A DNA stretch of 64,000 nucleotides, taken from the IMG/VR virus record IMGVR_UViG_3300033416_000002, positions 5,012 through 69,011 of that record; one strand, written 5' to 3'. The DNA is from a virus (taxonomy: Duplodnaviria; Caudoviricetes). The translations under genes were made by a program, and so were the position numbers. Positions 2,232-52,850 of the stretch are shown here, piece after piece (position 1 is the first letter of the stretch; every line of letters begins with the position of its first letter). A model generated the notes under the pieces. It was not told where the DNA came from. It ran no database searches and worked only from the letters and a program-made list of their open reading frames with translations.

Positions 2232-3121
2232 GCGAACTCGAGCTGACATTCAACGGCACAGCCATAGACGCTTCCACCTCCGACTACACCAGGAAGTTGT
2301 ACGGTGCCCCTATCTTTGGCGGGCGGGCAGCTGCTGGCGCGGACGTGGAGTACCCGGGATTCGGGGTGGCCCTCACCGGAGCCATTCAGCCACAGATCAT
2401 GCAGTGGAGCTTCATGGTGGAGCTGACATCCCTGGATGCCAGCGGCACCACTGGCTTGCGCCGACAGTTCGACCTGGCGGAGGATCTGGCGAAGCTCCTG
2501 GACCCCGAGCTTGGCGAGGTCAGTGCGCTATTCACCAGGAAGAACGCCTCCGGCACTGACGTAGAGCGATACCTGCGCACCAAGGTGCTCACCGCTCCGA
2601 TCTGGAACTACGGCCCCAAGGGGGGCATGGATGGGGTACGTGTGGCGGCCTACTCACGCTACACCATCCCCTGCGAGTCGAGGTATCCCTACTTCATCGC
2701 CAATGCCGCCTCGTTTGACGACGAGATCGACCTCGTTACCACCTGGGAGGTCTACAACCCCGGGCATCGCTGGACTGGATTCCGCCTTGAGGTAAACACG
2801 GGCACTACCTATGACGGCGACACGGTGACCATCACGGACGACGCCGACGCCACCAATACCATCGACATCTACTTCCCCAACGGGCTGGATGGATCCGTTG
2901 GTGCGGTGCTTGAGTGGTGGTATCCAGCTGCCACTCTGGGCAACCCCCTCGGCGTCCGATCGTTCGATGGCACCGCCCGAGGGGTGGCCGTGCCAACGCC
3001 GGGGGCCTGGCTGAACCTTGCCGCCGACACAACGACTGATCTGAACTTCTCGGTATCGGGTGGCTCATCTGGGGACACCAAGCTCCAGTTCACCGTGGTT
3101 CCGATCTACTACTCGCTATGA
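2228..3121 (+). CDS. Distal tail (Dit)-like protein
   Basis: 297 aa, immediately after tape measure (ATGA overlap); ESRYPYF and VYNPG motifs resemble the Dit P/NxG pattern. Confidence 0.65.
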   Translation: MSELELTFNGTAIDASTSDYTRKLYGAPIFGGRAAAGADVEYPGFGVALTGAIQPQIMQWSFMVELTSLDASGTTGLRRQFDLAEDLAKLLDPELGEVSALFTRKNASGTDVERYLRTKVLTAPIWNYGPKGGMDGVRVAAYSRYTIPCESRYPYFIANAASFDDEIDLVTTWEVYNPGHRWTGFRLEVNTGTTYDGDTVTITDDADATNTIDIYFPNGLDGSVGAVLEWWYPAATLGNPLGVRSFDGTARGVAVPTPGAWLNLAADTTTDLNFSVSGGSSGDTKLQFTVVPIYYSL

Positions 3122-4359
3122 TCCGCCCGATCGACGCCTTCCGCGCCACCTACTGGCTGGCTCTCAAGCACAAGAGCCGGGCGTATGGCTATGAGCTGTG
3201 GCAGTACGATGACTTCTCCTGCGATCATGGCAAGTACGGAGAGGGCAGCGCGTCGGTGACCCTTGACCCCCGGAGTAACGACATCCCATGGACTGACGTT
3301 CTCTCGGACCTGTACGGCTGGTCGCTGGACATGGGGATCCTCAACTCCACCAAGACTCTATGGAAGGGCCCGGTACTCCAGCTCAAGTTCGCACACGGAT
3401 TGGGAACGCGCATCACCCTGGAGTGCGAGACCTTTATGCACCACCTGGCCAGAAGGCGGATTGGCGTCTCGACCAACAACGCCAAGCTCTCAGACGCAGT
3501 TACCCAGGTCTACGCCGGGGACATGCTTGAGACCATCTGGGGTCTCGCGCTCGAGAATCCGAGCACCGTCAGCGGGTACCCGTGGACCGAGCGCGATGTT
3601 ATGACGCCATGGACGGCTGTCCTCGGGACCGCCGACAACGGCAATCAGTTCTACATGGAAAACGAGTCGGGCTCCAACCTCTGGGACTTCACGGTGGACA
3701 TGTGCGAGCGCGGGGACCTGTATACCAAGCTCACCGAGTCTCCGGCTGGCACATTCCAATACGACTTCGCCTCACCCTATGCTGGCACGGATCGTTCTGC
3801 CTACATCGTGTTCACCAATCGCAATGGTCTCCTGCGGGCCGTCCAGCGCACCATCGACTTCTCGGCCCTCTGCAACACGTTCCAGTTTCGCGGCTCCGGC
3901 AAGGAGGACGGTCAGGTTATCTACTGGTACGGCAACACCCCCTCCAAGACCACCTATGGCATCTTCGAGGATGGTGATACCGAGGCCGGTGCTGATGATA
4001 CCAACACTGGGGGCGACCTGGCCGAGTATCTCGCCAAGGGGGACCCGATCCAGACCTGGGAGATCGACGTGGTGGCCGATGACGAGTACCGCTTCGGCAT
4101 CGACTTCGCCCACCGCGACCTGATCAGCTTCCACCACACCGACATGGAGATCTTCGGTGGACTGAGTGGAGGCGGGGGTGGTGGGGTGGTGACGGGTAGG
4201 GTCATCGGGTGGAAGTGTGGCTTCGAGGCGGGGCGAGCCATCTGGACGTTTGTACTCGGGGAACCTCCCAGGAACTACTTGGGAGAGCTGTGGCAGAGAG
4301 TTGGCATGGCGGGCGGGCGCATGGCGGCAGGCGTCAGGCGAACCAAGGGAGGCTGGTGA
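3118..4359 (+). CDS. Baseplate hub / minor tail protein (siphovirus Gp37/Tal-like)
   Basis: 413 aa after Dit; GTDRS..IVF, YGIFE and YRFGIDF..RDLI motifs resemble this family. Confidence 0.65.
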   Translation: MIRPIDAFRATYWLALKHKSRAYGYELWQYDDFSCDHGKYGEGSASVTLDPRSNDIPWTDVLSDLYGWSLDMGILNSTKTLWKGPVLQLKFAHGLGTRITLECETFMHHLARRRIGVSTNNAKLSDAVTQVYAGDMLETIWGLALENPSTVSGYPWTERDVMTPWTAVLGTADNGNQFYMENESGSNLWDFTVDMCERGDLYTKLTESPAGTFQYDFASPYAGTDRSAYIVFTNRNGLLRAVQRTIDFSALCNTFQFRGSGKEDGQVIYWYGNTPSKTTYGIFEDGDTEAGADDTNTGGDLAEYLAKGDPIQTWEIDVVADDEYRFGIDFAHRDLISFHHTDMEIFGGLSGGGGGGVVTGRVIGWKCGFEAGRAIWTFVLGEPPRNYLGELWQRVGMAGGRMAAGVRRTKGGW

Positions 4360-4775
4360 TGTCACGAGTTCTCGATAAGATCATCGAGCCAGGGCCCACT
4401 ACCATGGCCGAGGCCCTTCTGGTCTTGATTGGACTCCTGCGGGGGGTGGGGATCCTGTTGTTCGATGGGGTCACTCCTAACACCCCGGCATTCCGCTTGG
4501 CACTCGAGATCCTCCCGGCCACCCTCTGGGCATGGGTGCTCATCCTGCTTTCGGCAACCTTGATGGTTGCCCATCGCAAGTGCTGTAGGCTCTACAGATA
4601 CAGCCTTGTGTCAATCTTCGTGTACTGGCTCTTGTGGCTCGGACTCTCCCTTGCGTCGGCGAGGTCGATCACGGTCCTCCCGCTCCTGGTCCCGTGGGTG
4701 GCATGTTGCATGGCAGCAGCCTGGATTTACCTCGTTCACTCGTGGGGGGGCGATTGTGGATCCCGAGACCGCTAA
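4359..4775 (+). CDS. Multi-pass membrane protein (holin-like)
   Basis: Start chosen at MSRVLDK (TGATG overlap); about 4 hydrophobic segments; follows the tail genes. Confidence 0.55.
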   Translation: MSRVLDKIIEPGPTTMAEALLVLIGLLRGVGILLFDGVTPNTPAFRLALEILPATLWAWVLILLSATLMVAHRKCCRLYRYSLVSIFVYWLLWLGLSLASARSITVLPLLVPWVACCMAAAWIYLVHSWGGDCGSRDR

Positions 4776-5070
4776 TACCGTCATCATCGCCCTGGTTACC
4801 GCACTCACAGGCAACATCGGCTTGCAGCTCCTCAAGATGCTCGGGGAGCGGCACAAGGAACAGCGCGAATCCAGCAAGCAGGTTGTGGATAACGAGCTTG
4901 CCCTCAGCGGAGGGTGGGAGAAGCTCTACACACAGGCCCTCGAGCGCATCGAGAGGCTCGAGACCACCATTGCCACCCTACAACAAACCGAGTCGGAGTT
5001 GCGCGCCGAAAATGTGGCTCTCAAGTTGCGCATAGCAGCCCTGGAGGCCCTACAGCGAGGCGAGAAATGA
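4756..5070 (+). CDS. Single-TM + coiled-coil membrane protein (lysis-associated type)
   Basis: GTG start MDPETANTVIIALVTAL; C-terminal heptad coiled coil. Confidence 0.6.
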   Translation: MDPETANTVIIALVTALTGNIGLQLLKMLGERHKEQRESSKQVVDNELALSGGWEKLYTQALERIERLETTIATLQQTESELRAENVALKLRIAALEALQRGEK

Positions 5071-6338
5071 CGACGCTGACATACGAGAACTACCTCGAGA
5101 TCCAGGAGTTCAAAAGGGACTACGGTCGGAGCTTCAGGTGGGACGAGGTGGCGTCCAGGTACGGATTCAACAGCGGGGAGGGGATTCGATCCGCCTTCCG
5201 CCGCATCCGTGAGCAGATGACAACCGAGGCCCCGCAAGGAACGCTTATCGAGGTAGCAGACCAGGGGCCAACGATCACCTCGCCGGTACGGGGACGAATC
5301 ACGAGTCTCGAGGAGCTGCTGGCGGAGGCCAAGGTTGACCTCGCCGTCTGGCGGGTGACGAAGTACATCATCAACAAGTGGGAGGTGGGTACGGCGCTGC
5401 CGGATGGCACGGTGTGCGTCGAGCCACTCTTCCAGGTCAAGGCATGGCTGGCTCCTCTGGCTCCCATGGCCAGGTACATCGAGGCGGCGGAGAGCCTCAA
5501 AGCGGACATGCAAGGCTGGACTCCGCCTACATACTCGGCCATTCCGCACCCCAACGCATCTCCTGGATGTCTTCTGGAGATCTGCATTTCGGACTTGCAT
5601 CTGGGCATGCTGTCCTGGGAACCGGAAGTCGGGGCCGACTACGACACTACGATCGCCGAGGAGTTGTTCCGCAACGCCATCCTGGATATTCTGGGGATGG
5701 TCAGCGGATTTTCAATCGAGGAGATAGTTCTGGTGCTCGGTGGAGACATCCTCCACGTTGACCAGACGATCGCGGGCGCGGGCGGGGCCACCAACCGCGG
5801 AACTCCCCAGGATGTGGATGGCCGCTGGCAGAAGGCGTTTCGCACGGCTCGCATGATGCTGGTGTCCTCGGTGGAGCTACTTCGTGTCGTGGCTCCCGTC
5901 AAGGTTGTGGTGGTGCCCGGAAACCACGATCTCGAGAGACTGTTCCACCTCGGCGACGTGCTTGCCGCATGGTTCAGGGAAGCCGAGGACGTGATGGTGC
6001 TGAACTCACCCGAGCCCAGGAAGTATGTGCGGTGGGGGCGGGTCCTTCTGGGATACTGCCACGAGAAGCTCAAGGACATGGGCATCCTCATGGCCAACGA
6101 GGTGCCCGAGATGTGGGCACAAACCGACCACCGGGAGTGGCATACGGCGCACGGTCATCGGGCCGCCCTTGAAGAATCTGGTGGGGTACGGATCCGGACC
6201 ATCCCGGCCCTTGTCGCTGAGAACGCATGGTCGGCAGGCAGGGGCTATACTCACATCCGGTGCGCCGAGGCGTACCTGTGGCACAGGGACCAGGCCTTCA
6301 TGGGGATGTTCAGCGTTCCGGCAAGGAGGAACCAATGA
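5067..6338 (+). CDS. Calcineurin-like metallophosphoesterase
   Basis: Motifs ISDLHLG, GGDILH, PGNHD, HGH. Confidence 0.85.
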   Translation: MTTLTYENYLEIQEFKRDYGRSFRWDEVASRYGFNSGEGIRSAFRRIREQMTTEAPQGTLIEVADQGPTITSPVRGRITSLEELLAEAKVDLAVWRVTKYIINKWEVGTALPDGTVCVEPLFQVKAWLAPLAPMARYIEAAESLKADMQGWTPPTYSAIPHPNASPGCLLEICISDLHLGMLSWEPEVGADYDTTIAEELFRNAILDILGMVSGFSIEEIVLVLGGDILHVDQTIAGAGGATNRGTPQDVDGRWQKAFRTARMMLVSSVELLRVVAPVKVVVVPGNHDLERLFHLGDVLAAWFREAEDVMVLNSPEPRKYVRWGRVLLGYCHEKLKDMGILMANEVPEMWAQTDHREWHTAHGHRAALEESGGVRIRTIPALVAENAWSAGRGYTHIRCAEAYLWHRDQAFMGMFSVPARRNQ

Positions 6339-7582
6339 CCAGGATGGGACTCCACCTCCACTCGACTGCCACCGCACAGGCCGTCATGAACTACGTGCGG
6401 CAGGTTCAGCCACCAATCATGAAGGCGATTGACCCCGATGACGCGCTGATCGCCGATTGTCGAGCCCTCTCGCCCAAGACTCGCTGGATCGGGCGGGTAG
6501 TTGCCGACCAGAACCTCAACGACTATGGGGCGTTCCAGGGTAGGGTCCTCTCCGCGGCTCGGGCTCACCCAGAGGTCTGGGGCTGGGAGGGCATGAACGA
6601 GGTGGCCGTGCGAGCCAAGGACCTGCGAGCTTTCACTCAGGCCGAGGTCGGATTGGCGAAGCGCCTCAACGAGATGGGCCGTGCGGCGTGCATCGGCGGC
6701 TTCAGCACCGGCTTCGTCGAAGGTGACGACTTCAGCTACATGCGCACCGGCTGGGAGTACCTCCAGGCCCATCCAGACATCGCGGTGCTCCACTTCCACG
6801 AGTACAGCGCCCCCTACGTGCAGTATGCCTGGCAGACACCAGACGGCAAGAACCAGTACCCCCCAGGGGGCTCCTGGACGGGCATGTCACTGGATCGCGC
6901 CCAGTTCATGACCCCGGGGATCGAGGGGTGGCTCACCCTGCGCTACCGCAAGTTGCGGAAGCGTCTGGTAGACGCGGGCTTCGATCGCGTTCGGTTCGTC
7001 ATCACGGAGTCGGGTATCGACGGGGGCGTGACTCAGCGACCAGGACCCGGTGGTGGGGGCTGGGCCGACTTCCAGCAGCCCGAATGGACCGGGGGCGCTG
7101 CCGGGAACTACGCCAAGCAGCTCTACTGGTACTGGTGGCAGATCAGCCAGGATCCCTATGTGATAGGTGGCGTGGACTTCGGGAACGGAACGCTCGATCC
7201 TCACTGGCTCACCTGGGACCTCACGAGACAGCCATCCATGCTCGAGCAGGTGATCGGGGTCATGCGCACCCTGCCCGGGGAGGTCGTGGCCCCTCCGCCA
7301 GTGACCACCATCGACATCGCCAAGGTCCGCGCCACGGCTACGAGCGAGCAGTGGGCCCGGGGGATTCACCTCAATGCCTCCGCGGCCCTGCTCAGGTCCA
7401 TGCTTCAGGATGGCATGTCGCCTCTCACAAACGAGTATGCCTACAGCGATGCGTCCGGGGACTACACCGCCCAGCTGGCAGGCGAGCCGGTGCCCTTGGT
7501 GGCCGGGGAGATCCACCTGATTCCCTCCCGAGTCTACCTCTGGCATCAGTCCAGCGGCAAAGTGATCAAGGTTGGGATGTAA
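6335..7582 (+). CDS. Clan GH-A (GH5-like) glycoside hydrolase, putative endolysin/depolymerase
   Basis: GWEGMNE (acid/base), HFHEY, VITESG (nucleophile) motifs; Pro-rich linker then a C-terminal domain. Confidence 0.65.
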   Translation: MTRMGLHLHSTATAQAVMNYVRQVQPPIMKAIDPDDALIADCRALSPKTRWIGRVVADQNLNDYGAFQGRVLSAARAHPEVWGWEGMNEVAVRAKDLRAFTQAEVGLAKRLNEMGRAACIGGFSTGFVEGDDFSYMRTGWEYLQAHPDIAVLHFHEYSAPYVQYAWQTPDGKNQYPPGGSWTGMSLDRAQFMTPGIEGWLTLRYRKLRKRLVDAGFDRVRFVITESGIDGGVTQRPGPGGGGWADFQQPEWTGGAAGNYAKQLYWYWWQISQDPYVIGGVDFGNGTLDPHWLTWDLTRQPSMLEQVIGVMRTLPGEVVAPPPVTTIDIAKVRATATSEQWARGIHLNASAALLRSMLQDGMSPLTNEYAYSDASGDYTAQLAGEPVPLVAGEIHLIPSRVYLWHQSSGKVIKVGM

Positions 7583-7653: not shown

Positions 7654-8082
7654 ATGGTGTACGTGATGGTCATTCTGACCGCCCTGCTGGCCCTCGTCCT
7701 CCAGACGGAGGGGGAGTCCTGGCCAGCCCTGCTTCTGACCGCATTGGCCACCCTCTTCGCTATTCCGGCCATCAACTCCTTCGTCACCGGCCTTCTGCGG
7801 CGCTTCACTGACGCCACCGGCCTCAATCCTCGCATCCTGGTCTACATCGTCACTGGCGCCGCCGCCCTGATCTACATGATCAAGATTCCGCCCGACCTGC
7901 CGATGTTCGACTCGGCCAATCCCTATGAGTTCGTGACCGCGTGGATCCTCATCGTCATCTCCTGGGCCGAGCTGGCCAAGAAATACTACGACCTGGTACT
8001 CCTCAAGATCCCACTGATCAATCCTCGCGCCAACGGCGGCGGTACGCACTGGCGCACCGCACGCACAATGCGCTATCCATAG
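7654..8082 (+). CDS. Membrane protein, holin-like
   Basis: About 4 hydrophobic segments, basic C-terminus, GGAG RBS. Confidence 0.6.
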   Translation: MVYVMVILTALLALVLQTEGESWPALLLTALATLFAIPAINSFVTGLLRRFTDATGLNPRILVYIVTGAAALIYMIKIPPDLPMFDSANPYEFVTAWILIVISWAELAKKYYDLVLLKIPLINPRANGGGTHWRTARTMRYP

Positions 8083-34362: not shown

Positions 34363-34676
34363 GGCGGGAGTACTGGATTCACACCGACCGGCACGACTGG
34401 GACCTCCTGACGTATCTCCAAACAGGAAAGAAGGTAGTGATGGGCAAGGGAGCACATGGGGCCTGGAAGGCGGGCGGCTGGCGTCTCTGGCTTCAGTGGT
34501 TGCTTCGGATAACGACCGAGGCCGAGCTGGAGCATGATGTGGCGAAGGAGATGCGCTGCGGCTGGGAGTGCTGTCGCTACACTGGGCGGCGGCGCTACCT
34601 CCTGTTCGGGGTCCTGCCGACCCCATGGCGGGGGAAGCGCAAGAAGTATGAAGATACCGATCGGCTACAGGCCTGA
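34359..34676 (+). CDS. Hypothetical protein
   Basis: ATGA overlap. Confidence 0.5.
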   Translation: MRREYWIHTDRHDWDLLTYLQTGKKVVMGKGAHGAWKAGGWRLWLQWLLRITTEAELEHDVAKEMRCGWECCRYTGRRRYLLFGVLPTPWRGKRKKYEDTDRLQA

Positions 34677-34956
34677 CGTAATCGCTCGGCGGGTCGCCCT
34701 GCTCAGGGCCTATGCCAAGGGCGGGAAGAGGGGGCGAGCAACCAGGGACGCCAGTCGGGAAGTGAGACAGAAGGAGCTGACGCGCTGCCGCTTTGCCATT
34801 TACCATGACTCCTACATCTTGCGGACACTGGGCCTGATCACCGCCACGGCCCAAAAGGGGATCCCACGAACTGGGAAGCGCAGTCTGGAGATCTTCTTCC
34901 GAGTTACTGAGGCGGGCCAAAACGTACTCGACATGTACGAAGGAGACTGGGAATGA
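34648..34956 (+). CDS. Basic protein, winged-HTH-like
   Basis: ILRTLGLI...FRVTEAG wing pattern. Confidence 0.5.
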   Translation: MKIPIGYRPDVIARRVALLRAYAKGGKRGRATRDASREVRQKELTRCRFAIYHDSYILRTLGLITATAQKGIPRTGKRSLEIFFRVTEAGQNVLDMYEGDWE

Positions 34957-35102
34957 TCGGGATGCCGGAGTTGGTAGTGATCGGACTACTCGTCATGATG
35001 CTCTTCGGGGCCGGGCGACTGCCGCAGGTCATGAAGCAGCTCGGGGAGGGGATCAGGGACTTCCGTCACGGAGTGACCGATCCCAATACCGACGATGACT
35101 GA
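34953..35102 (+). CDS. tatA: Twin-arginine translocase TatA/TatE family subunit (49 aa, not in ORF track)
   Basis: My translation: MIGMPELVVIGLLVMMLFGAGRLPQVMKQLGEGIRDFRHGVTDPNTDDD. It shows G.PEL, a TM helix, the FG..RLP hinge and an amphipathic LG.GIR.F helix; AAGGAG RBS. Confidence 0.88.
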   Translation: MIGMPELVVIGLLVMMLFGAGRLPQVMKQLGEGIRDFRHGVTDPNTDDD

Positions 35103-35427
35103 CCTGACGCGGCGGCGCTTTCTACTTGGGGCGGCCCAGGTAACCGGACTGGCGATGCTGGCGCCAGCGTTGGACGTGGCGGGGGGAGTTCTGCGCCCCG
35201 AGACCGAAGTGGTGGTTCCGAAGCTGGAGATGGTGGGGGAGCAGGTCATGGTGATGCCGCGAGACCCACTGAAGAGCCTCAATCTGGGCGATTGGATGGT
35301 GACCAGCGTCTCGCTCACCGCGGATCGGGACATCGAGTACATGATGGACCCTGGGTATGGGTCAGCATACGTGACCCCCAGGCCCGTTCGACTTCAGCTC
35401 GAGGCCATCTACGTAGGCAGGAGGTGA
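35095..35427 (+). CDS. Twin-arginine signal peptide-containing protein
   Basis: MTDLTRRRFLLGAAQVTGLAMLAPA matches (S/T)RRxFL + h-region; overlaps the tatA stop. Confidence 0.75.
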   Translation: MTDLTRRRFLLGAAQVTGLAMLAPALDVAGGVLRPETEVVVPKLEMVGEQVMVMPRDPLKSLNLGDWMVTSVSLTADRDIEYMMDPGYGSAYVTPRPVRLQLEAIYVGRR

Positions 35428-35430
35428 TGC

Positions 35431-36069
35431 ATGGCCAAGGACGCCAAGTATCTCAAGGGGATTGACGTTTCGCGTTGGCAGGGCCCGATGCACTGGCGCC
35501 AGGCGCGGCAGGCGGGCAACGAGTATGCCTGGATCAAGGCCACCGAGGGCACCCTCTGGATAGACCCAAGGTACCTTGACAACGCTGAAGGAGCGGACAT
35601 GGCGGGTCTCCTGTGGGGCCCATACCACTACTTCCGCAATGCTTACAGCTGGTTGGAGCAGGCAGAGCACTTCGTGGCCAGGGTGCTGGAGGGGCCGACA
35701 CCATCTCTGCCGCCAGCCCTGGACTTCGAGGACACCAAGACGCCTGCCAATGGCGCACTGATCCGTGCGTTTGTAGAGTCTGTGGAGACACGACTGCAAC
35801 TAGGTCGTCCGCTCATCTACACGGGTGCATGGTGGTGGAACGACGTGCGCCTCGGCCACTGTCAGACCTGGGCGGCTCGCTACCCGCTCTGGATTGCACA
35901 CTATAACGTGCAAAAGCCGACAATCCCAAAGCCATGGACTACCTGGGCCATCTGGCAGTGGGCCAGCATGGGGGATGGACCTGGACACGGAGCGTCCTCG
36001 GCATACATCGACCGCAACCGATTCCGCGGAACGCGGGCCGAGATGGAAGGATGGACGGGCCAAGAATGA
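35431..36069 (+). CDS. GH25 muramidase (endolysin), catalytic domain only
   Basis: GIDVSRWQG, KATEG, GPYHY, LDFE, IYTG, LWIAHY, WQW motifs. Confidence 0.92.
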   Translation: MAKDAKYLKGIDVSRWQGPMHWRQARQAGNEYAWIKATEGTLWIDPRYLDNAEGADMAGLLWGPYHYFRNAYSWLEQAEHFVARVLEGPTPSLPPALDFEDTKTPANGALIRAFVESVETRLQLGRPLIYTGAWWWNDVRLGHCQTWAARYPLWIAHYNVQKPTIPKPWTTWAIWQWASMGDGPGHGASSAYIDRNRFRGTRAEMEGWTGQE

Positions 36070-36332
36070 GAATGACCGACAAGAGATTCGTGATCATAGG
36101 CATTTGCCTGGGACTGGCCGCCGTGGTCGGGGTGTTCCTGGCTATCGGGGGCTTTCAACTGAACAGCAACTATCAGGTGGCCTGCGCGGTCCAGAAGTCA
36201 GATGGCACAACCACGTTCGAGCGCGGCTGTCACGTAGATGAGTACACCGGGAATCTGCTCTGTCTCGGGGCGACCTATTCGCCTACGGGTTGGGACTCCT
36301 TCCGGTGCGAGCGGCTGGAGGTGCCGAGGTGA
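36066..36332 (+). CDS. Single-TM protein with Cys-rich extracellular part
   Basis: IIGICLGLAAVVGVFLAIGG; four Cys in the C-terminal part. Confidence 0.6.
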   Translation: MRMTDKRFVIIGICLGLAAVVGVFLAIGGFQLNSNYQVACAVQKSDGTTTFERGCHVDEYTGNLLCLGATYSPTGWDSFRCERLEVPR

Positions 36333-36457
36333 TGGATGTGGTGATGATCGTGATTCGCACCGCCGCATTCTGGCCAACGTTAGTCCTCGAGGTGTTCTTG
36401 GTGGGGCTGTGTTCGCTCTGCTGGGGCATCGTCTTCATCAAGCACTCGTGGAAGTAG
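36332..36457 (+). CDS. Small hydrophobic protein (41 aa, not in ORF track)
   Basis: MDVVMIVIRTAAFWPTLVLEVFLVGLCSLCWGIVFIKHSWK; TGATG coupling. Confidence 0.5.
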   Translation: MDVVMIVIRTAAFWPTLVLEVFLVGLCSLCWGIVFIKHSWK

Positions 36458-39223: not shown

Positions 39224-40840
39224 GTGGCTACCCCCACCTCGGTTGAGCGGGCAGCCGCGGCAAGGACTGCTACAAGCAGCCTTCTGTCCTACATCATCCA
39301 CACAACCCCCTTCATTGACATAGGCGGCTTCCATCTGCTGGCGATCGACCATCTCGAGGCCCTCGAGAGGGGCGACTTCGATCGTCTGATGATCAATGTG
39401 CCCCCTCGGCACGGCAAGACCGAGCTGGTGAAGCGGTTTGGGGGCTACCATCTCGGCAAGTTCCCAGACGACATGCTCATGATCTGCTCCTATGGGGCAG
39501 AGCTGGCCTACGAGATCAGCTACGACGTGCGCGCCCAGCTCACTGACAGCTCGTATCCCTTCAACGTCAGGGTGCAGGCAGGCAGGGCGGCTGTCAAGAG
39601 ATGGGGAATCGAGGGCAGGCGGGGTGGGGTGGTTGCTGCTGGTGTAGGCGGGGCTATCACAGGGAAGGGCGCCAACATCCTGATTATCGACGACCCCGTG
39701 AAAGATCGTGAACAAGCCGATTCGCCTACCTGGCGGGACAAGACGTGGCGCTGGTACAGGGATACGGCTTACACGCGACTCATGCCAGGTGGCAAGGTCA
39801 TCGTGATTCAGACTCGCTGGCATCAGGGGGATCTCTCAGGGCTCTTGATTGATGCCATGCAGAACGTGGTCGGTGCAGATGAGTGGGTAGTTCTGAACCT
39901 ACCCGCCCTGGCCTATGGGTCTGACGAGTGGCCCGAGTACATCCCCCCAGAATCCAGGCGAGATCCTCTTGGTAGGCGTCCAGGGCAGGCACTTTGGCCT
40001 GAGTGGTACGATGAAGAGAAGCTGGCTCGCATTCATGCCACGATGTCGGCGGGAGTTGAGGGCCCTCGGGGTTGGAGATCACTGTACCAGCAGAATCCCA
40101 CGGCAATCTTCGGTGGGGTGTTCCAGCGCGAGTGGATGGGCCAGCGATTCGCTACCTATCACGAGCTGGACATCAAGCGCATCGGGATCTTTGTGGACTC
40201 GGCCTTCATAGAGGGTGTGGCTACAGCCTTCAGTGTGGCTGCCGTGTGGGCAGAGACGCCCTCGGGCTTCGCTCTACTGGACGAGTCGAGGGCCAGGGTG
40301 GGCTTTGACGAGCTTCTCCAGATGATTCGGGACTGTTACGAGACCTGGAGGGCTAGGGTGCCCGGGATCATCCCCGAGGTAGTGATCGAGAACAAGGCAT
40401 CGGGCATTTCGGCCATCCAGGTGCTCTCCAAGGGGCAGATTCCAGTTACGCCCTGGCCTGATCCCAACTCGCCCTCTGAGAGGAAGCTGGCTACGGCAAG
40501 CAAGGAAGCCAGGGCGGATCAGGCAACCGTGCCCTTTAGGGCTGGGAAGATCTGGTTGCCACGATCTGCTCCCTGGATTGCCGACTGGGTGACTGAGCAC
40601 ACGGACTTCCCAACCGCGATCTTCAAGGACAGGGTTGATACGACGGGCATGATGGTGTCACGCTTCTACTCTGTGGTCGAGGCGGCCTCGGCCGGGGACC
40701 TGGAAGAGCAGGAGTCGTACTGGGCAAACCAGGCACGGGTCAGGGGTTTCTCTACGGGCTTCAGGGGGGGCGAGGATGGATACCTGGGACATTTCAGACG
40801 AGGAGGTAGGGGTGAGCAAACAGCCGCAATTGATGATTGA
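39224..40840 (+). CDS. terL: Terminase large subunit
   Basis: PPRHGKT Walker A, IIDDP Walker B, IQTRWH, LYQQ.P, VDSA, IENKASG, DRVD nuclease motifs. Confidence 0.95.
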   Translation: MATPTSVERAAAARTATSSLLSYIIHTTPFIDIGGFHLLAIDHLEALERGDFDRLMINVPPRHGKTELVKRFGGYHLGKFPDDMLMICSYGAELAYEISYDVRAQLTDSSYPFNVRVQAGRAAVKRWGIEGRRGGVVAAGVGGAITGKGANILIIDDPVKDREQADSPTWRDKTWRWYRDTAYTRLMPGGKVIVIQTRWHQGDLSGLLIDAMQNVVGADEWVVLNLPALAYGSDEWPEYIPPESRRDPLGRRPGQALWPEWYDEEKLARIHATMSAGVEGPRGWRSLYQQNPTAIFGGVFQREWMGQRFATYHELDIKRIGIFVDSAFIEGVATAFSVAAVWAETPSGFALLDESRARVGFDELLQMIRDCYETWRARVPGIIPEVVIENKASGISAIQVLSKGQIPVTPWPDPNSPSERKLATASKEARADQATVPFRAGKIWLPRSAPWIADWVTEHTDFPTAIFKDRVDTTGMMVSRFYSVVEAASAGDLEEQESYWANQARVRGFSTGFRGGEDGYLGHFRRGGRGEQTAAIDD

Positions 40841-41160: not shown

Positions 41161-42855
41161 TTGACGAAGTACGACATCGGCAATCTCAGGGCCATGGCCC
41201 GGACTGATCCGGCATCCCTAGACAAAGACATGAAGAACGCCCTGCTGGCCGCGGCCCTAGAGGACCGCGGTATCAGTGGGGCTCGACGCATTTCTGAGAC
41301 CGGCGACCTCTCAGACCCCGAGGACCGGGCTCGAGAACGAGAGATCCAGGAGGGCATCTGGGACGGGGACGATCCCGATCGCTTCCTGGGCGACTCGGTG
41401 GGCGGACAGCCCTACATGCGCAGGATCACCTCTGCCGCACGGCGCAAGGACCTCACGCCGATGCAGCAGGAGAAGATGTTCAAGCTGGCGGTCTTCCTCT
41501 GGGATCGCAACCCACTTGCCGCCAGGGTGATCCGTCGTGCCGTCAACTACGTCCTGGGTGAAGGTATCCAGGTAGTGGCTCGGCACAAGAAGAACGAAGT
41601 TCGCAACGAGATTCAGAAGATCATCGACCAGTTCTGGTTCGACCCCCGGAACCGCCTCGATGTGCGTCTGCTGCGTTGGGCTCTGGCTTGGCGTGCCTAT
41701 GGTGAGTTGGCCTTGAGAGTGGGCGTCAATCCCGTTACCGGCCTGGTGCGTCTTGCCTACATCTCTCCCGAGATGATCACCGACGTGAAGACCGAGCCTG
41801 GGGACATCGAGCAGCTCGAGAAGCTCGTCGTCAGGAAGGTCGAGCAGGACGAAAACGGCAACGTGCGAGAGATGGTTGGGAAAACTGAAGATCTCGCCAT
41901 TGTAGCCACCTATGAGGGCATACCAATATCAAGCGACGAGAAGCTACTCGAACGAACGCCCGGCAGGCAATATGGGCAAGCGTTCTACTTCGCCGCCAAC
42001 ACCCTGCCCGACATGGTGCGAGGGCGCTCGGATCTCCTGGCGATCGCCGATGTGCTGGATGCCTACGATCAGTTCATCTGGACCAGGATGGAACGACAGG
42101 CGATGCTCCTCGCGTTCGTTTGGAGCATCGAGCTGGCGGGGGCAAGCAATGAGCAGATCGACGCCTGGATCAAGAAGCACAGGAGTACTCCCCGTCCGGG
42201 CTCACTCCAGGTCCACAACGAGAAGGTGAAGTGGAATCCTGTCTCACCCACCCTGGGAAGCAGCGAGGGCCTGCAAGAGAGCGACCTGATCATCAACTAC
42301 ATCGCCACCTCGCAGGGAATGCCCGGGATGTGGTTCGGGCGCGAGCAGGATCCCAACAAGGCTAACGGCTCGAACCTGACAGGGCCCACGCTCAAGGATC
42401 TCACTTGTCTCCAGAACGAGTTCAAGGGGCTGATCTCCCGACTGCTGATGTTCGTGCTGGACGTGGCGATTCAGCAAGGGAGGCTCCCTGATGACCTCGA
42501 TCTCCGACAGAGCTTCGACATCCAACTCCCCGACTTGTCCCAGAAGGACATGGCCCTTACGGCCACCACGCTTGCTACTCTGGCCAACGCCCTGACGGCA
42601 GCTCGCACGGGCCAGATGATTGACCTTCAGACCTCGCAGGAGGTGTTCCTGCTCGCCCTAGCACCCACGGGGATCGAGGCAGACATTGCCGAGGTCAGGA
42701 AGCGCATCCAGCAGGAGACAGAGGACGCCGCCGCCAAGCAGGAGGAGGAAACCGAGAAGTGGTACCAGCAACAGGCTGCGTACCAGCAGTCTGCACAGCC
42801 AGCACAGACAGAGGGCGAGGCAATGCCCGAAGAGGAGTACACTGGCTATGACTAG
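41161..42855 (+). CDS. Portal protein
   Basis: 564 aa after TerL; NPLA..I....V.G.GI, GRSDL, P.PGS..VHN.KV.W motifs. Confidence 0.85.
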   Translation: MTKYDIGNLRAMARTDPASLDKDMKNALLAAALEDRGISGARRISETGDLSDPEDRAREREIQEGIWDGDDPDRFLGDSVGGQPYMRRITSAARRKDLTPMQQEKMFKLAVFLWDRNPLAARVIRRAVNYVLGEGIQVVARHKKNEVRNEIQKIIDQFWFDPRNRLDVRLLRWALAWRAYGELALRVGVNPVTGLVRLAYISPEMITDVKTEPGDIEQLEKLVVRKVEQDENGNVREMVGKTEDLAIVATYEGIPISSDEKLLERTPGRQYGQAFYFAANTLPDMVRGRSDLLAIADVLDAYDQFIWTRMERQAMLLAFVWSIELAGASNEQIDAWIKKHRSTPRPGSLQVHNEKVKWNPVSPTLGSSEGLQESDLIINYIATSQGMPGMWFGREQDPNKANGSNLTGPTLKDLTCLQNEFKGLISRLLMFVLDVAIQQGRLPDDLDLRQSFDIQLPDLSQKDMALTATTLATLANALTAARTGQMIDLQTSQEVFLLALAPTGIEADIAEVRKRIQQETEDAAAKQEEETEKWYQQQAAYQQSAQPAQTEGEAMPEEEYTGYD

Positions 42856-50528: not shown

Positions 50529-52850
50529 ATGGCCAATGACAAGCATCTGATCCTTGAGACCGGGGGAGTGCTACTCGGCCCCTCTGGGAAGAACGGCTCC
50601 AAGTGGCGAGTGACCCTGATCGAGGAGGGCATCTCCAAGAACAGGCGCTACTACGGTGGAGACATGCTCGAGCGGGATGCCAGGATGTTTGATGGCTTGC
50701 GGGCATTCGTGGATCATCCCACTCCTGAAGAGCGGCAGTCCCGCCCCGAGGGCTCGGTGCAGCGGCTGGCAGGTTGGTACGACAACGTGGGAATCGTCAA
50801 CCAGGGCGGGAAGCGGCGGGTTGACGCGGATCTCAATGTGATCAACCCGGAGCTTCGTCAGACCATGCTGAACGCATGGGAGATGGGCCGCCCGGATCTC
50901 ATCGGCTTCTCGATCAACGCCTCGGCCACCAATCTTCGCCCTGCAACGATTGGGGGGCAGGTGGTGGAGACCGTTGATGGCTTTCAGACCGTCAGATCGG
51001 TGGACGTAGTGACGATCCCTGGTGCAGGCGGGGTTATCCGAGCAGTTCTCGAATCAACTGGAGGCACTACCATGGCCGATCCCTTGACGGCAGAGCAGAT
51101 CAAGGAACTGGTCGAGTCGGCGGCGGCTAAGGCGGCCGAGGAGGCAGCTTCGCGGACGGCTGAAGCGTTCCGCGCGGCCCTGCTCGAAGCCGTTGAGGAG
51201 GCCGAGGAAGGCGAGACCGGGGATTCCGACACCGACCCCGACATCCCCGAGGAGGAAGAGGGGGACGAGGAGGTCGAGGACGAGGACGAAGACGAAGACG
51301 AGGAAGGTGAGGGCGAGGAGGACGAGGGGTCGCTCGACGACGCCGTGGAGGAAGCCCTCCGGCCGGTGATGAAGCGCATGCAGCGGCTCGAGAGGGAGCT
51401 GTACGAGTCGGCGGGCATGCGCTACATCGAAACCTCACTCGCCGCGAGCACCCTCCCCGATCCCTTCAAGGAGCACGCGCGCACGCGCATGGTCGAGCTG
51501 CTCGAGGCTGGGGCGTTGACGGCCGACAGCGGCAAGAAGATCGTTGAGAGCACGGCAGAGTTCGCCGGGAAGGTGGCCCCCGTGAATCCGACTGGCACGC
51601 CGGGTACGGTTGTGACCATGGGCAAGGACGAGTGGGATCGCTACCAGGCAGGGCTCGCCGTCATGCTGGGGGCGCCCTCGACCGCCGAGAACCGCGGTTT
51701 CGGCTCGATCATGGAGGCGTACTACAACTATCCCGGGCAGGACCGCCGCTGGGGCGGCTTCTCGGCCCTGGAAGTCTTCAACGCCCTCTCCGATCCGGGC
51801 GCCAACCGCCGCATCTACGACTCCGAGCTGGACGCCAAGCGGGTGCAGGAGTCCGTGACCACGGCGACCTTCGGGCAGCTCTTCGCTGACGTGATGTACC
51901 AGCGGATGATGAAGACGTTCAGCGAGATGCCCTACCGGGACTGGACCAAGCTGGTCTCCCAGCGTGAGAACGTCACCGACTTCCGCTCGCGGCGGTGGAT
52001 CCGCTGGGGGATGTACGGCAACATCCCCGCCGTGGGACAGGGTGCGCCGTACCAGCCTCTGACCACGCCTGGCGACGAGGAAGCCTACTACTCGATCAGC
52101 AAGTACGGTGGGCTCGAAGACCTGACGATCGAGGCTGTGACGATGGACAACCTCGGCCAGCTGCGCCAGATCCCCGAGAAGCTCTCCTACGCTACCGCGC
52201 GCACGCTGTTCGAGTCGATGATGGACCTCGCCACCACGGGCGGCCTCACCACCGTCACCACCTACGACGGTGTGGCCACCTACGCCAGTGGGCACACCAA
52301 CCTGTCCACCTCGAACACCTACCTCCTGAACCCTGACGGCCTGGACTCGGTGCAGCAGGCCATGCGCGCGCAGGTGCCCTACGGGGCTCCGGCGACCGAG
52401 TACCTGGGAAGCCGCAACAAGATCAAGTACCTGATCGTTCCGCCTTCCTACGAGTATCGGGCCAAGGCGTTCCTGAATCCGAGCGACAAGTTCCAGGCCA
52501 GCCTGGTTCCGCTGGACGCCAGCCAGAGTTCCGCCGTGCTGCGCGACCTCGGCGCCTTCGGGACGATCGACCCGTTCGCCTTCGCCAACCAGGGCATCGA
52601 GGTCATCGTCTACGACAAGCTGACCTCCAACCACAACGTCTACGTCTTCGCCGATCCGAACCAGCCGGGCATCGAGACGCTGGTGGTCGGTTTCCTCAAC
52701 GGCCGGGACACCCCCGAGCTGTTTGTGCAGGATGCCGGGACCAACGCCGGGTCGGCCTTCACCGCGGACAAGATCACCTACAAGGTGAGGATGTTCTGGG
52801 GGATGTGCTGGCTCGACCACCGCTCGGCCTACTGCATGCAGATCACGTAG
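50529..52850 (+). CDS. Prohead protease (T4 gp21/S77-like) - scaffold - major capsid (HK97 fold) fusion
   Basis: G.SKN.RYY, VDHP (His), GFSIN (Ser) in the first ~175 aa; acidic helical scaffold; capsid domain after VQES with DFR, EE..Y...KYG, Mu gpT-like C-term. Confidence 0.88.
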   Translation: MANDKHLILETGGVLLGPSGKNGSKWRVTLIEEGISKNRRYYGGDMLERDARMFDGLRAFVDHPTPEERQSRPEGSVQRLAGWYDNVGIVNQGGKRRVDADLNVINPELRQTMLNAWEMGRPDLIGFSINASATNLRPATIGGQVVETVDGFQTVRSVDVVTIPGAGGVIRAVLESTGGTTMADPLTAEQIKELVESAAAKAAEEAASRTAEAFRAALLEAVEEAEEGETGDSDTDPDIPEEEEGDEEVEDEDEDEDEEGEGEEDEGSLDDAVEEALRPVMKRMQRLERELYESAGMRYIETSLAASTLPDPFKEHARTRMVELLEAGALTADSGKKIVESTAEFAGKVAPVNPTGTPGTVVTMGKDEWDRYQAGLAVMLGAPSTAENRGFGSIMEAYYNYPGQDRRWGGFSALEVFNALSDPGANRRIYDSELDAKRVQESVTTATFGQLFADVMYQRMMKTFSEMPYRDWTKLVSQRENVTDFRSRRWIRWGMYGNIPAVGQGAPYQPLTTPGDEEAYYSISKYGGLEDLTIEAVTMDNLGQLRQIPEKLSYATARTLFESMMDLATTGGLTTVTTYDGVATYASGHTNLSTSNTYLLNPDGLDSVQQAMRAQVPYGAPATEYLGSRNKIKYLIVPPSYEYRAKAFLNPSDKFQASLVPLDASQSSAVLRDLGAFGTIDPFAFANQGIEVIVYDKLTSNHNVYVFADPNQPGIETLVVGFLNGRDTPELFVQDAGTNAGSAFTADKITYKVRMFWGMCWLDHRSAYCMQIT

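Follow-up and report, generated by a model that had tools for sequence, protein, structure and literature searches.

A bacteriophage TatA/E-type protein coupled to a twin-arginine-signal gene ahead of a GH25 endolysin

TatA is required in large excess over TatBC, and in Bacillus subtilis a TatA paralogue is encoded beside its substrate (phoD-tatAd-tatCd). Export of a folded protein on the Tat signal of its partner, or hitch-hiking, is known for the small and large subunits of hydrogenase and for DmsAB. Holin-independent export of endolysins is also known and includes SAR endolysins (P1 Lyz), a Sec signal (fOg44 Lys44) and Ms6 LysA with its chaperone Gp1. The features critical to TatA function are a polar residue, a helix of ~12 residues ending in Phe, a Gly hinge, and an amphipathic helix with a Phe, followed by acidic residues (PMC9527704). 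The small holin TpeE is unrelated to TatA in sequence and does not have its conserved residues (PMC9527704). The T4 antiholin RI is a small protein whose signal peptide is cleavable; outside the membrane, it acts on a holin that has one helix and a large outer domain (PMC8385771). No publication on a phage TatA was found.

Here, we describe a phage cassette in which a 49-aa gene is hypothesized to encode a working TatA/E-type subunit, carried with the phage's own Tat passenger and supplementing host TatC. We assign this reading a probability of about 0.58. Other explanations, several of which involve the neighboring endolysin, are weighed where the relevant evidence is presented.

The cassette and its TatA protein

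The phage is an uncultured virus represented by a 69,011-bp IMG/VR record (IMGVR_UViG_3300033416_000002), the ends of which are direct terminal repeats. The window analyzed here is a 64,000-nt stretch comprising positions 5,012 to 69,011 of that record, and all coordinates refer to it. Six genes on the plus strand form the cassette, and start/stop overlaps extend across its entire length. The first (34648..34956) encodes 102 aa from MKIPIGY..., and its stop overlaps the tatA ATG (ATGA). Third-position GC is best in its own frame, and no Pfam or PHROG family matched the protein. Its Atlas model (pLDDT 0.73) has TM scores of 0.69-0.78 to PadR/MarR-type winged-helix regulators, and the product is probably a winged-helix DNA-binding protein, although this predicted model provides a lead only.

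A preliminary description of this DNA, made from the sequence alone, had reported a 49-aa TatA at 34953-35102, the stop of which overlaps a gene with a Tat motif, followed after 3 nt by a GH25 muramidase without signal peptide or cell-binding domain and then by two coupled transmembrane proteins, with no tatB or tatC in the window. All of these observations were reproduced, as detailed below. Its remark that the TatA had been missed is correct for the open reading frame track then in use, but a 49-aa call is present in the public protein collection (P0002).

The 49 residues encoded by tatA (34953..35102) correspond to what truncation studies term the minimal unit. The gene is preceded by an AAGGAG Shine-Dalgarno sequence, and its product matched PF02416 (E 8.4e-13; 47.8 bits versus a cut-off of 21) and TIGR01411 tatAE (54.7 bits versus a cut-off of 53.9), whereas TIGR01410 tatB gave 22 bits versus 56.5. 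With its identity supported by three profile libraries (Pfam, PHROGs and NCBIfam), the product is, as judged by these profiles, a genuine TatA/E-type subunit and not of the TatB type. No holin family in the same three libraries matched it. As read from the sequence and alignments A2 and A5, the protein has a polar E6, a 12-residue helix (L7-F18), a hinge at F18-G19, an amphipathic helix with LGEGIRDF (L30-G31-x-G-I-R-x-F37) and an acidic tail (D43, D47-D49), and it keeps all of the function-critical features named in PMC9527704.

A profile search of the whole 69,011-bp record, beyond the window itself, found no TatC (PF00902) and no second TatA/B; the TatC search controls were positive in 11 of 14 genomes. 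Without its own TatC, the phage must rely on that of its host. As to the identity of the host, the window has no tRNA, and GH25 relatives are scattered over many phyla. The species genomes contain no prophage relatives of TerL, the identity of which to cultured phages does not exceed 35%. TatA identity peaks at ~50-54% alike in the sampled phyla of Fimbriiglobus, Chloroflexia and Gemmatimonadetes MAGs, in samples that took in the unpublished genomes G205, G312, G374 and G414, on which no conclusion here depends. With identities this low to every cellular TatA found, the capture of tatA was not recent.

The twin-arginine cargo and its recurrence beside TatA

The gene that follows (35095..35427; 110 aa), identified by sequence and motif scan and referred to here as the RR gene, has its ATG 8 nt inside the end of tatA (ATGACTGA). 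The protein has the N-terminus MTDLTRRRFLLG, and the gene starts as MTDLTRRRFLLGAAQVTGLAMLAPA. Its signal covers approximately residues 1-24 and consists of T-R-R-R-F-L-L, an 18-residue uncharged h-region (KD15 1.79) and A-P-A at positions 22-24, as judged by our own consensus rule (S/T-R-R-x-F-L-K, uncharged h-region, small-x-small) and not by a trained predictor. None of the other 2,544 start-ORF candidates scanned in the window has a credible Tat-type N-terminus, and a scan for RRxFL with an uncharged h-region returned it along with only three spurious matches. The protein did not match PF10518 or TIGR01409; models this short fail to detect many true signals, and HMMER filters drop weak hits. 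In the public gene call, the start is at M21 (90 aa), which leaves out the RR motif, and no Shine-Dalgarno sequence lies ahead of the RR ATG. Nevertheless, the 110-aa form is favored over the M21 start because no stop interrupts the first 20 codons, both other frames contain stops, and the motif is near-unique in the window.

We infer that the mature RR domain comprises ~86 aa, is beta-rich and is folded on export. No homologues were found in viral contigs or cultured phages, and a word-index search returned only the protein itself. An exhaustive search showed just a weak likeness to YDG/MBG adhesin repeats, made up repeat by repeat; phmmer found YDG-repeat proteins at E 1.4e-10 library-wide, but each repeat contributed only 5-9 bits. 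No Pfam family, including PF18657, PF17883 and PF18676, matched at E up to 1. An AF2 prediction from a 6-row alignment was unusable (pLDDT 41), and the ESM Atlas model was no better, with uninformative neighbors.

In three further IMG/VR viral contigs (L092, L094 and L123), which represent two further lineages, tatA is likewise followed by an unrelated gene with a twin-arginine signal. L092 (60.9 kb; CheckV 100%) has a TatA-like gene (23.7 bits) and, overlapping it, a gene for 172 aa with the start ...RPSRRGIIGALGALFAAPAIVRA. In L094 (62 kb; CheckV 100%), the TatA (65 bits; TIGR01411) has an 8-nt overlap with a 41%-identical cargo, and the RR pair does not vary among five family members. In L123, the TatA scores 62 bits and MDRRKFLTNLGIGSAAVTTAALV is found two genes downstream. 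The cargos are unrelated among the three lineages. No TatC (PF00902) was found in any of these three records, of which L092 and L094 are rated complete, and none has a lysin beside the TatA-cargo pair. Their surroundings are of an early/replication type, with a PD-(D/E)XK nuclease, AAA_24 and ParB. Because these contigs have no lysin nearby, the conserved unit is TatA plus cargo rather than TatA plus lysin.

Searches of limited sensitivity yielded only four cases of TatA plus cargo in all. Conversely, similar Tat-like signals occur on proteins of at least 26 further viral contigs in which the surrounding 4 kb contain no TatA, so that phage Tat cargo does not in general need a phage TatA. Two other candidates were rejected. 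MT837480, the sole tblastn TatA match in cultured-phage records, is a tatA-tatC locus with radical-SAM genes that looks cellular, and the same is true of provirus L121; neither counts as a phage case with TatA only. As a separate observation, phrog_29532, annotated as 'unknown function', appears TatA-like.

Among the proposals of the preliminary description was export of the RR protein by a phage addition to the Tat system, and the TatA and RR-signal genes of the three further contigs, as predicted from their sequences, lend it support. The same description had named a missing TatA profile match and missing synteny in relatives as grounds for abandoning its proposals; the match was obtained, and synteny was found with an RR cargo but not with a lysin, and both outcomes speak for a real TatA module.

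These data also bear on whether tatA and the RR gene are simply a passenger pair with no role in this infection cycle, either as a recently captured host tatA fragment followed by an ORF that starts at M21, or as a moron, expressed e.g. in lysogeny or superinfection exclusion, that happened to insert in the lysis region. The public M21 call and the missing Shine-Dalgarno sequence would suit such a pair, as would the lack of close relatives for either protein and the lack of TatA in the nearest relatives by TerL or GH25. However, GC content and third-position bias of the pair agree with those of the neighboring genes, overlaps run throughout the cassette, and the distance of the TatA from its cellular counterparts is not that of a fresh fragment. 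L094 has the identical TatA-cargo geometry with the same 8-nt overlap, and it is very improbable that a Tat-consensus N-terminus would occur by chance behind tatA in four separate contigs. We therefore regard a passenger pair as decidedly unlikely.

The endolysin, the membrane proteins and lysis

The GH25 muramidase gene (35431..36069; 212 aa) matched PF01183 (E 7e-39; 134 bits) and the phrog_291 endolysin family (E 3e-39). Its GH25 domain begins at residue 11, hydrophobic segments are absent (maximum KD15 0.66), and there is no additional domain. In alignment A1, the catalytic residues D12, D98, E100 and D194 do not vary. By its residues, the enzyme is catalytically intact, and it is predicted to be a signal-less, cytoplasmic protein consisting of the catalytic domain only. 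The gene has its own AGGAGG Shine-Dalgarno sequence and starts 3 nt after the RR stop in the same reading frame (TGA TGC ATG). TatA was found beside GH25 in none of 8 related viral records and at a distance of 5 kb or less from none of 80 cellular GH25 genes, and the closest relatives by TerL or GH25 are without TatA.

This arrangement raises the question of whether the folded GH25 enzyme could bind the mature RR domain in the cytoplasm and be exported on the signal of the RR protein, independently of a holin, or, as a variant, be made as a Tat-tagged fusion by occasional read-through of the single TGA between the two genes. The lysin has no signal of its own and lies in frame 3 nt after the RR gene. 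Moreover, some cellular GH25 enzymes carry a Tat-like signal fused directly to them (e.g. L056, MPSTRRQFLGAAAASAAGLA), with 10 of 86 relatives scoring as Tat-like by a loose rule, so the GH25 fold is Tat-compatible. On the other hand, the strong Shine-Dalgarno sequence of the lysin gene indicates that the enzyme is made independently and probably in excess. A shared frame has a one-in-three probability by chance, and TGA is the ordinary stop of the cassette; TGA recoding was ruled out because TGA terminates four of its genes. The other phages with TatA plus cargo have no lysin partner, the lysin is followed by two membrane proteins, an order usual in holin cassettes, and an active muramidase exported without regulation would be lethal to the cell before assembly ends. 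A complex prediction for GH25 with RR residues 25-110 scored 0.00 with an uncertain partner fold, and so weighs neither way. Overall, we consider co-export of the lysin to be very improbable.

Downstream of the lysin gene are two membrane protein genes with overlapping starts and stops, each identified by hydropathy and third-position GC and each encoding one strongly hydrophobic segment. The first, tm87 (36066..36332), encodes a small membrane protein that is anchored by an N-terminal segment, MRMTDKRFVIIGICLGLAAVVGVFLAIGG, and has an outer domain of ~55 aa with five Cys (maximum KD15 2.86; third-position GC best in its own frame). The second, tm41 (36332..36457), encodes a single-helix membrane peptide of 41 aa (maximum KD15 2.46; third-position GC 0.82 in its own frame), has a GGAGGTG Shine-Dalgarno sequence, and overlaps the tm87 stop by 1 nt. 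Neither product matched a family in Pfam, PHROGs or NCBIfam, and tm87 has no phage homologue. The absence of a holin-family match does not exclude holin function, because holins are very diverse. The tm87 protein is a candidate holin or lysis accessory, and tm41 a candidate holin or antiholin. Multi-helix proteins at 4359-4775 and 7654-8082 are further candidates, so that the phage has at least four membrane proteins besides TatA that could serve as holins.

The TatA itself might have taken on the task of a holin or of a helper to one, in which case the short helix and amphipathic helix of bulk TatA made late in infection would thin and in the end break the membrane and give the signal-less GH25 enzyme access to the wall, with the RR protein as the trigger nucleating assembly at host TatC. 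In its favor, tatA lies two genes ahead of the endolysin in one coupled operon, a frequent place for a holin, and the phage protein is pared down to just the minimal unit. The small holins TpeE and BhlA have been argued to share the TatA architecture and probably its membrane-weakening principle (PMC9527704). A coupled substrate also fits this explanation, because substrate binding triggers TatA clustering (PMC9527704). Against it, L092, L094 and L123 retain TatA and cargo in early/replication-type settings with no lysin. In addition, all residues for TatC-dependent, reversible function are retained, none of which a plain membrane breaker would need, no holin family matches the TatA, and the four candidates named above are available. 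A TatA holin is thus unlikely in our estimation. Co-export of the lysin and a TatA holin giving holin-independent lysis, both also suggested in the preliminary description, have positional support in one phage alone, and both are less likely than export of the cargo.

A broader hypothesis is that the Tat pathway is wired into phage lysis, such that the TatA and the RR protein together deliver, time or gate the GH25 enzyme. Possible routes are a substrate-triggered TatA holin, a hitch-hiking or read-through lysin, and a Tat-exported antiholin acting on tm87. Taken as a whole, this hypothesis is fairly unlikely, and if true it would constitute an undescribed lysis route. Most likely, the lysin is released in the ordinary way, through a holin.

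Proposed function and comparison with known systems

We hypothesize instead that the TatA works with host TatC to export the RR protein. Late in infection, the coupled genes would yield TatA and the 110-aa twin-arginine precursor together. The precursor's signal would dock at the host TatC (or TatBC) receptor, assuming that the host has a Tat system, and phage TatA would join or enlarge the TatA pool assembling at the receptor and thin the membrane. The folded, beta-rich domain of ~86 aa would then be delivered outside the cytoplasmic membrane. There, the cargo may act in the envelope at or near lysis, e.g. by regulating or assisting the membrane proteins or the breakdown of the wall; such timing is probable because the module lies in a late operon directly before GH25 and two membrane proteins.

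TatA is a part of the Tat system with a still-debated mode of action, and here a virus has kept only TatA and tied it to one passenger. The locus is therefore a natural experiment on the lone contribution of TatA, on TatA supply as a limit to export, and on whether a foreign TatA re-tunes host TatC. The Tat pathway would join the host systems that phages supplement with parts of their own. The position within a lysis cassette also makes it testable whether small holins and TatA are two versions of one membrane-weakening principle. If the link to lysis fails, the gene would still stand for a class of phage auxiliary genes that has no annotation and, apparently, no publication.

Among known systems, the T4 antiholin RI offers an analogy only, in that the RR cargo might stand to tm87 as RI does to its holin; however, RI is exported by Sec, its gene does not adjoin that of the lysin, and no sequence or structural similarity was found. 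P1 Lyz, Lys44 and Ms6 LysA are comparable in using a host export path or a small helper encoded just upstream of the lysin, a likeness that for the phage TatA module is one of position. In those systems, which use Sec, the lysin itself is the object of the signal or helper, whereas here a Tat-type signal is on a separate protein and the link to the lysin is one of adjacency. The holins TpeE and BhlA (TCDB 1.E.27) share with the phage TatA a short N-terminal helix and an amphipathic helix, a phage-type operon with a wall hydrolase, and a proposed thinning of the membrane. Unlike TpeE, the phage protein is truly homologous to TatA and retains the conserved residues. It matches no holin family, and any holin role is putative.

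In gene organization there is a likeness to Escherichia coli TatE and B. subtilis TatAc and phoD-tatAd-tatCd, in which the gene of a TatA/E-type subunit, with its FG hinge, short helix and amphipathic helix, lies outside the main tat operon. As with phoD-tatAd, the phage tatA adjoins the gene of a putative exported protein. Unlike these, the phage gene has no TatC of its own, encodes just 49 residues, is coupled upstream of a cargo without a known family, and is viral. What is new here, as read from the predicted proteins, is that TatA with an unrelated Tat-signal cargo recurs in three further viral contigs.

The tatA gene and its coupled cargo gene

The 69,011-bp IMG/VR virus record that contains the window (as bases 5012-69011) is bounded by direct terminal repeats, and nearly all genes of the window phage lie on the + strand. 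Genes for a large terminase (TerL; 39224-40840), a portal (41161-42855) and a capsid-protease fusion (50529-52850) mark it as a tailed dsDNA phage. Compared with the TerL proteins of cultured phages, its TerL reaches no more than 35% identity. The phage's TatA is equally distant (~50-54% identity) from TatAs sampled in three phyla; four of the genomes in these samples are unpublished, and no claim is based on those four.

The preliminary description proposed a 49-residue TatA at 34953-35102. This ORF scores 47.8 bits on PF02416 against a cut-off of 21, and 54.7 bits on the TIGR01411 tatAE model (cut-off 53.9) versus 22 bits on the TatB model, confirming the gene as real. The TatA hallmarks listed in a review of TatA and holins (PMC9527704) were used for comparison, and the complete set was found: polar residue E6 ahead of a hydrophobic helix that spans exactly 12 residues (L7-F18) and ends in Phe, a hinge at F18-G19, an amphipathic helix (L30-G-E-G-I-R-D-F37) and an acidic tail (D43, D47-D49). 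Glu is the usual residue at the polar position in two-component TatAC systems and in plants (PMC9527704). Its sequence places the protein clearly within the known family. Its end point is reportedly that of the minimal functional TatA unit in the truncations of Lee et al. 2002. Neither TatC nor a second TatA/B was found in the entire 69,011-bp record, which extends the absence of tatB and tatC described earlier beyond the window. Coupled upstream of tatA is a gene (34648-34956) whose product has the look of a PadR/MarR-type winged-helix protein (Atlas structure, TM 0.69-0.78).

The tatA stop was said to overlap a gene with a Tat motif, and it does so by 8 nt (ATGACTGA). This 110-codon gene (35095-35427), termed RR here, has an N-terminus (MTDLTRRRFLLGAAQVTGLAMLAPA) with a T-R-R-x-F-L motif, followed by an uncharged h-region and then an A-P-A site. 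The public gene call starts at M21. The longer form is favored because both alternative frames are closed across the first 20 codons, and because a loose Tat rule, applied to the window's 2,544 start-ORF candidates, selected the RR ORF and only three others, which were spurious. The cargo is an orphan, as homologue searches that included viral contigs and cultured phages gave no relative. Its mature part is predicted to adopt a beta-rich, low-confidence fold and has weak, repeat-by-repeat similarity to YDG/MBG adhesin repeats. The gene lies between those for TatA and the lysin in a coupled late operon, a setting that suggests a role for the cargo in the envelope around lysis. For example, by analogy with T4 RI acting on holin T (PMC8385771), the cargo might act on the Cys-rich outer domain of tm87, a small membrane protein encoded downstream.

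The lysin and the lysis-linked readings

The GH25 gene (35431-36069) starts 3 bases past the RR stop and is preceded by an AGGAGG Shine-Dalgarno sequence. Its product is a 212-residue muramidase (PF01183, E 7e-39; match to the phrog_291 endolysin family) in which D12, D98, E100 and D194 are conserved. The domain begins at residue 11, and both a hydrophobic segment and a second domain are absent. Two small membrane proteins, tm87 (36066-36332) and tm41 (36332-36457), follow with overlapping starts; both the signal-less lysin and this coupled pair had been described correctly. Each reading frame of the cassette is backed by third-position GC, and the gene run is free of terminator-like sites. 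The N-terminus of tm87 (MRMTDKRFVIIG...; 36066-36150) resembles that of the RR protein (MTDLTRRRFLLG...) in having a Lys-Arg pair followed by a very hydrophobic anchor; this could mean that tm87 is a membrane-anchored second Tat client, or the likeness could be due to chance.

Readings that tie TatA to lysis are, taken together, unlikely. The idea that TatA itself serves as the holin is attractive, given that TpeE/BhlA-type small holins have been argued to work like TatA (PMC9527704). However, the window protein retains the residues that serve TatC-dependent function, the remaining TatA-carrying phages lack a TatA-lysin pairing, and four alternative holin candidates are encoded by the phage, namely tm87, tm41 and the products of 4359-4775 and 7654-8082. 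The last two are multi-helix membrane proteins near the window's other hydrolase (6227-7582), which 7654-8082 directly follows, and are candidates located 27 kb from the GH25 cassette.

Alternatively, GH25 might be carried across the membrane by the Tat signal of the RR protein. The two genes adjoin and share a frame (35095-36069), with just TGA and a Cys codon between them (TGA TGC ATG); moreover, cells have GH25 enzymes with Tat signals, and 10 of 86 relatives are Tat-like under a loose rule. Against such hitch-hiking, chance would put the two genes in one frame one time in three, and GH25 possesses a strong ribosome-binding site of its own. Read-through of the TGA would yield a Tat-tagged lysin of ~324 aa. 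A cellular example, in a Fimbriiglobus sp. MAG (L056:4899-5603), has a directly fused Tat-type signal, MPSTRRQFLGAAAASAAGLAATVRP, worded much like that of the RR protein.

The phage GH25 most similar to that of the window (46% identity) forms the middle domain of an 838-aa protein (L004, IMGVR_UViG_3300048592_001391; 4023-6539). Upstream of this protein is a metallophosphoesterase like the one at 4914-6338 of the window, with a gene for a 130-aa membrane protein between them. Going by position rather than by alignment, the counterpart of the N-terminal part of the 838-aa protein is the separate hydrolase of the window; if this correspondence holds, the two window hydrolases would be one split lysin set.

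TatA and Tat cargo in other viruses

None of 80 cellular GH25 genes had a TatA within 5 kb, and no TatA was found in the nearest, albeit distant, relatives of the window phage. IMG/VR was searched for viral TatAs by two routes, one based on an alignment of TatAs and the other on a DNA pattern for the TatA motif, and yielded few; the searches were pattern-based, and some cases will have escaped them. L092 (60.9 kb, CheckV 100%) carries a TatA-like gene scoring 23.7 bits, and a 172-residue gene that starts ...RPSRRGIIGALGALFAAPAIVRA overlaps it. The TatA of L094 (62 kb, 100%) scores 65 bits on TIGR01411 and is overlapped by a 41%-identical cargo gene, again by 8 nt as in the window; both arginines and the AAPAIVRA site are invariant in five aligned members of this cargo family. 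TatC was found in neither contig. L123, a 27-kb fragment, begins with a TatA (62 bits), and two genes downstream encodes a 218-residue protein starting MDRRKFLTNLGIGSAAVTTAALV. The three cargo types, that of the window included, come from three lineages and are mutually unrelated. In L092, L094 and L123, the TatA pairs neighbor PD-(D/E)XK nuclease, AAA_24 and ParB-type genes rather than lysis genes. The proposed synteny of tatA, an RR protein and a lysin thus stands for the first two genes, which recur as a pair, but not for the lysin. What is conserved, in phages that lack TatC, is the combination of TatA and a Tat-signal gene; only in the window has this combination so far been seen inside a lysis cassette.

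Two other apparent phage cases were rejected. The GenBank scaffold MT837480.1 ('UNVERIFIED Bacteriophage sp.'; 2222-6270) and an IMG/VR provirus (L121, 4005-8286; GC ~35%) have tatA-tatC beside radical-SAM/SPASM-type genes, and the former additionally encodes a Cys-rich RR-signal peptide. Both look like low-GC cellular loci, not phage genes.

Approximately 26 further IMG/VR contigs (L095-L120) encode RRxFL...AAPAIVRA-type signals like the L092 cargo family, with TatA absent within 4 kb. Most phage Tat cargo therefore travels without a phage TatA, and Tat passengers seem to be encoded by phages far more often than TatA is. The TatAs of the window (E 0.003), L123 (1e-5) and L094 (2e-5) match phrog_29532, listed in PHROGs as of 'unknown function', which is probably an unannotated TatA-like family; such genes accordingly exist in reference phages.

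A phage-encoded TatA and known Tat systems

Neither a phage-encoded TatA nor a lysis cassette linked to Tat turned up in full-text literature searches, and where phages appear in a 2026 review on the evolution of Tat, it is in other contexts only. The reading that fits the combined findings, to which we assign a probability of roughly 0.6, is a 'bring your own TatA' export module. The phage would co-produce TatA and its passenger, the passenger signal would engage the TatC of the host, and the additional or differently tuned TatA would secure export late in infection. Bacterial precedents are stand-alone TatA paralogues and the phoD-tatAd-tatCd operon. The latter is likewise substrate-linked, whereas the window arrangement is virus-borne, TatC-less and cargo-coupled, and is a new version of the substrate-linked TatA theme.
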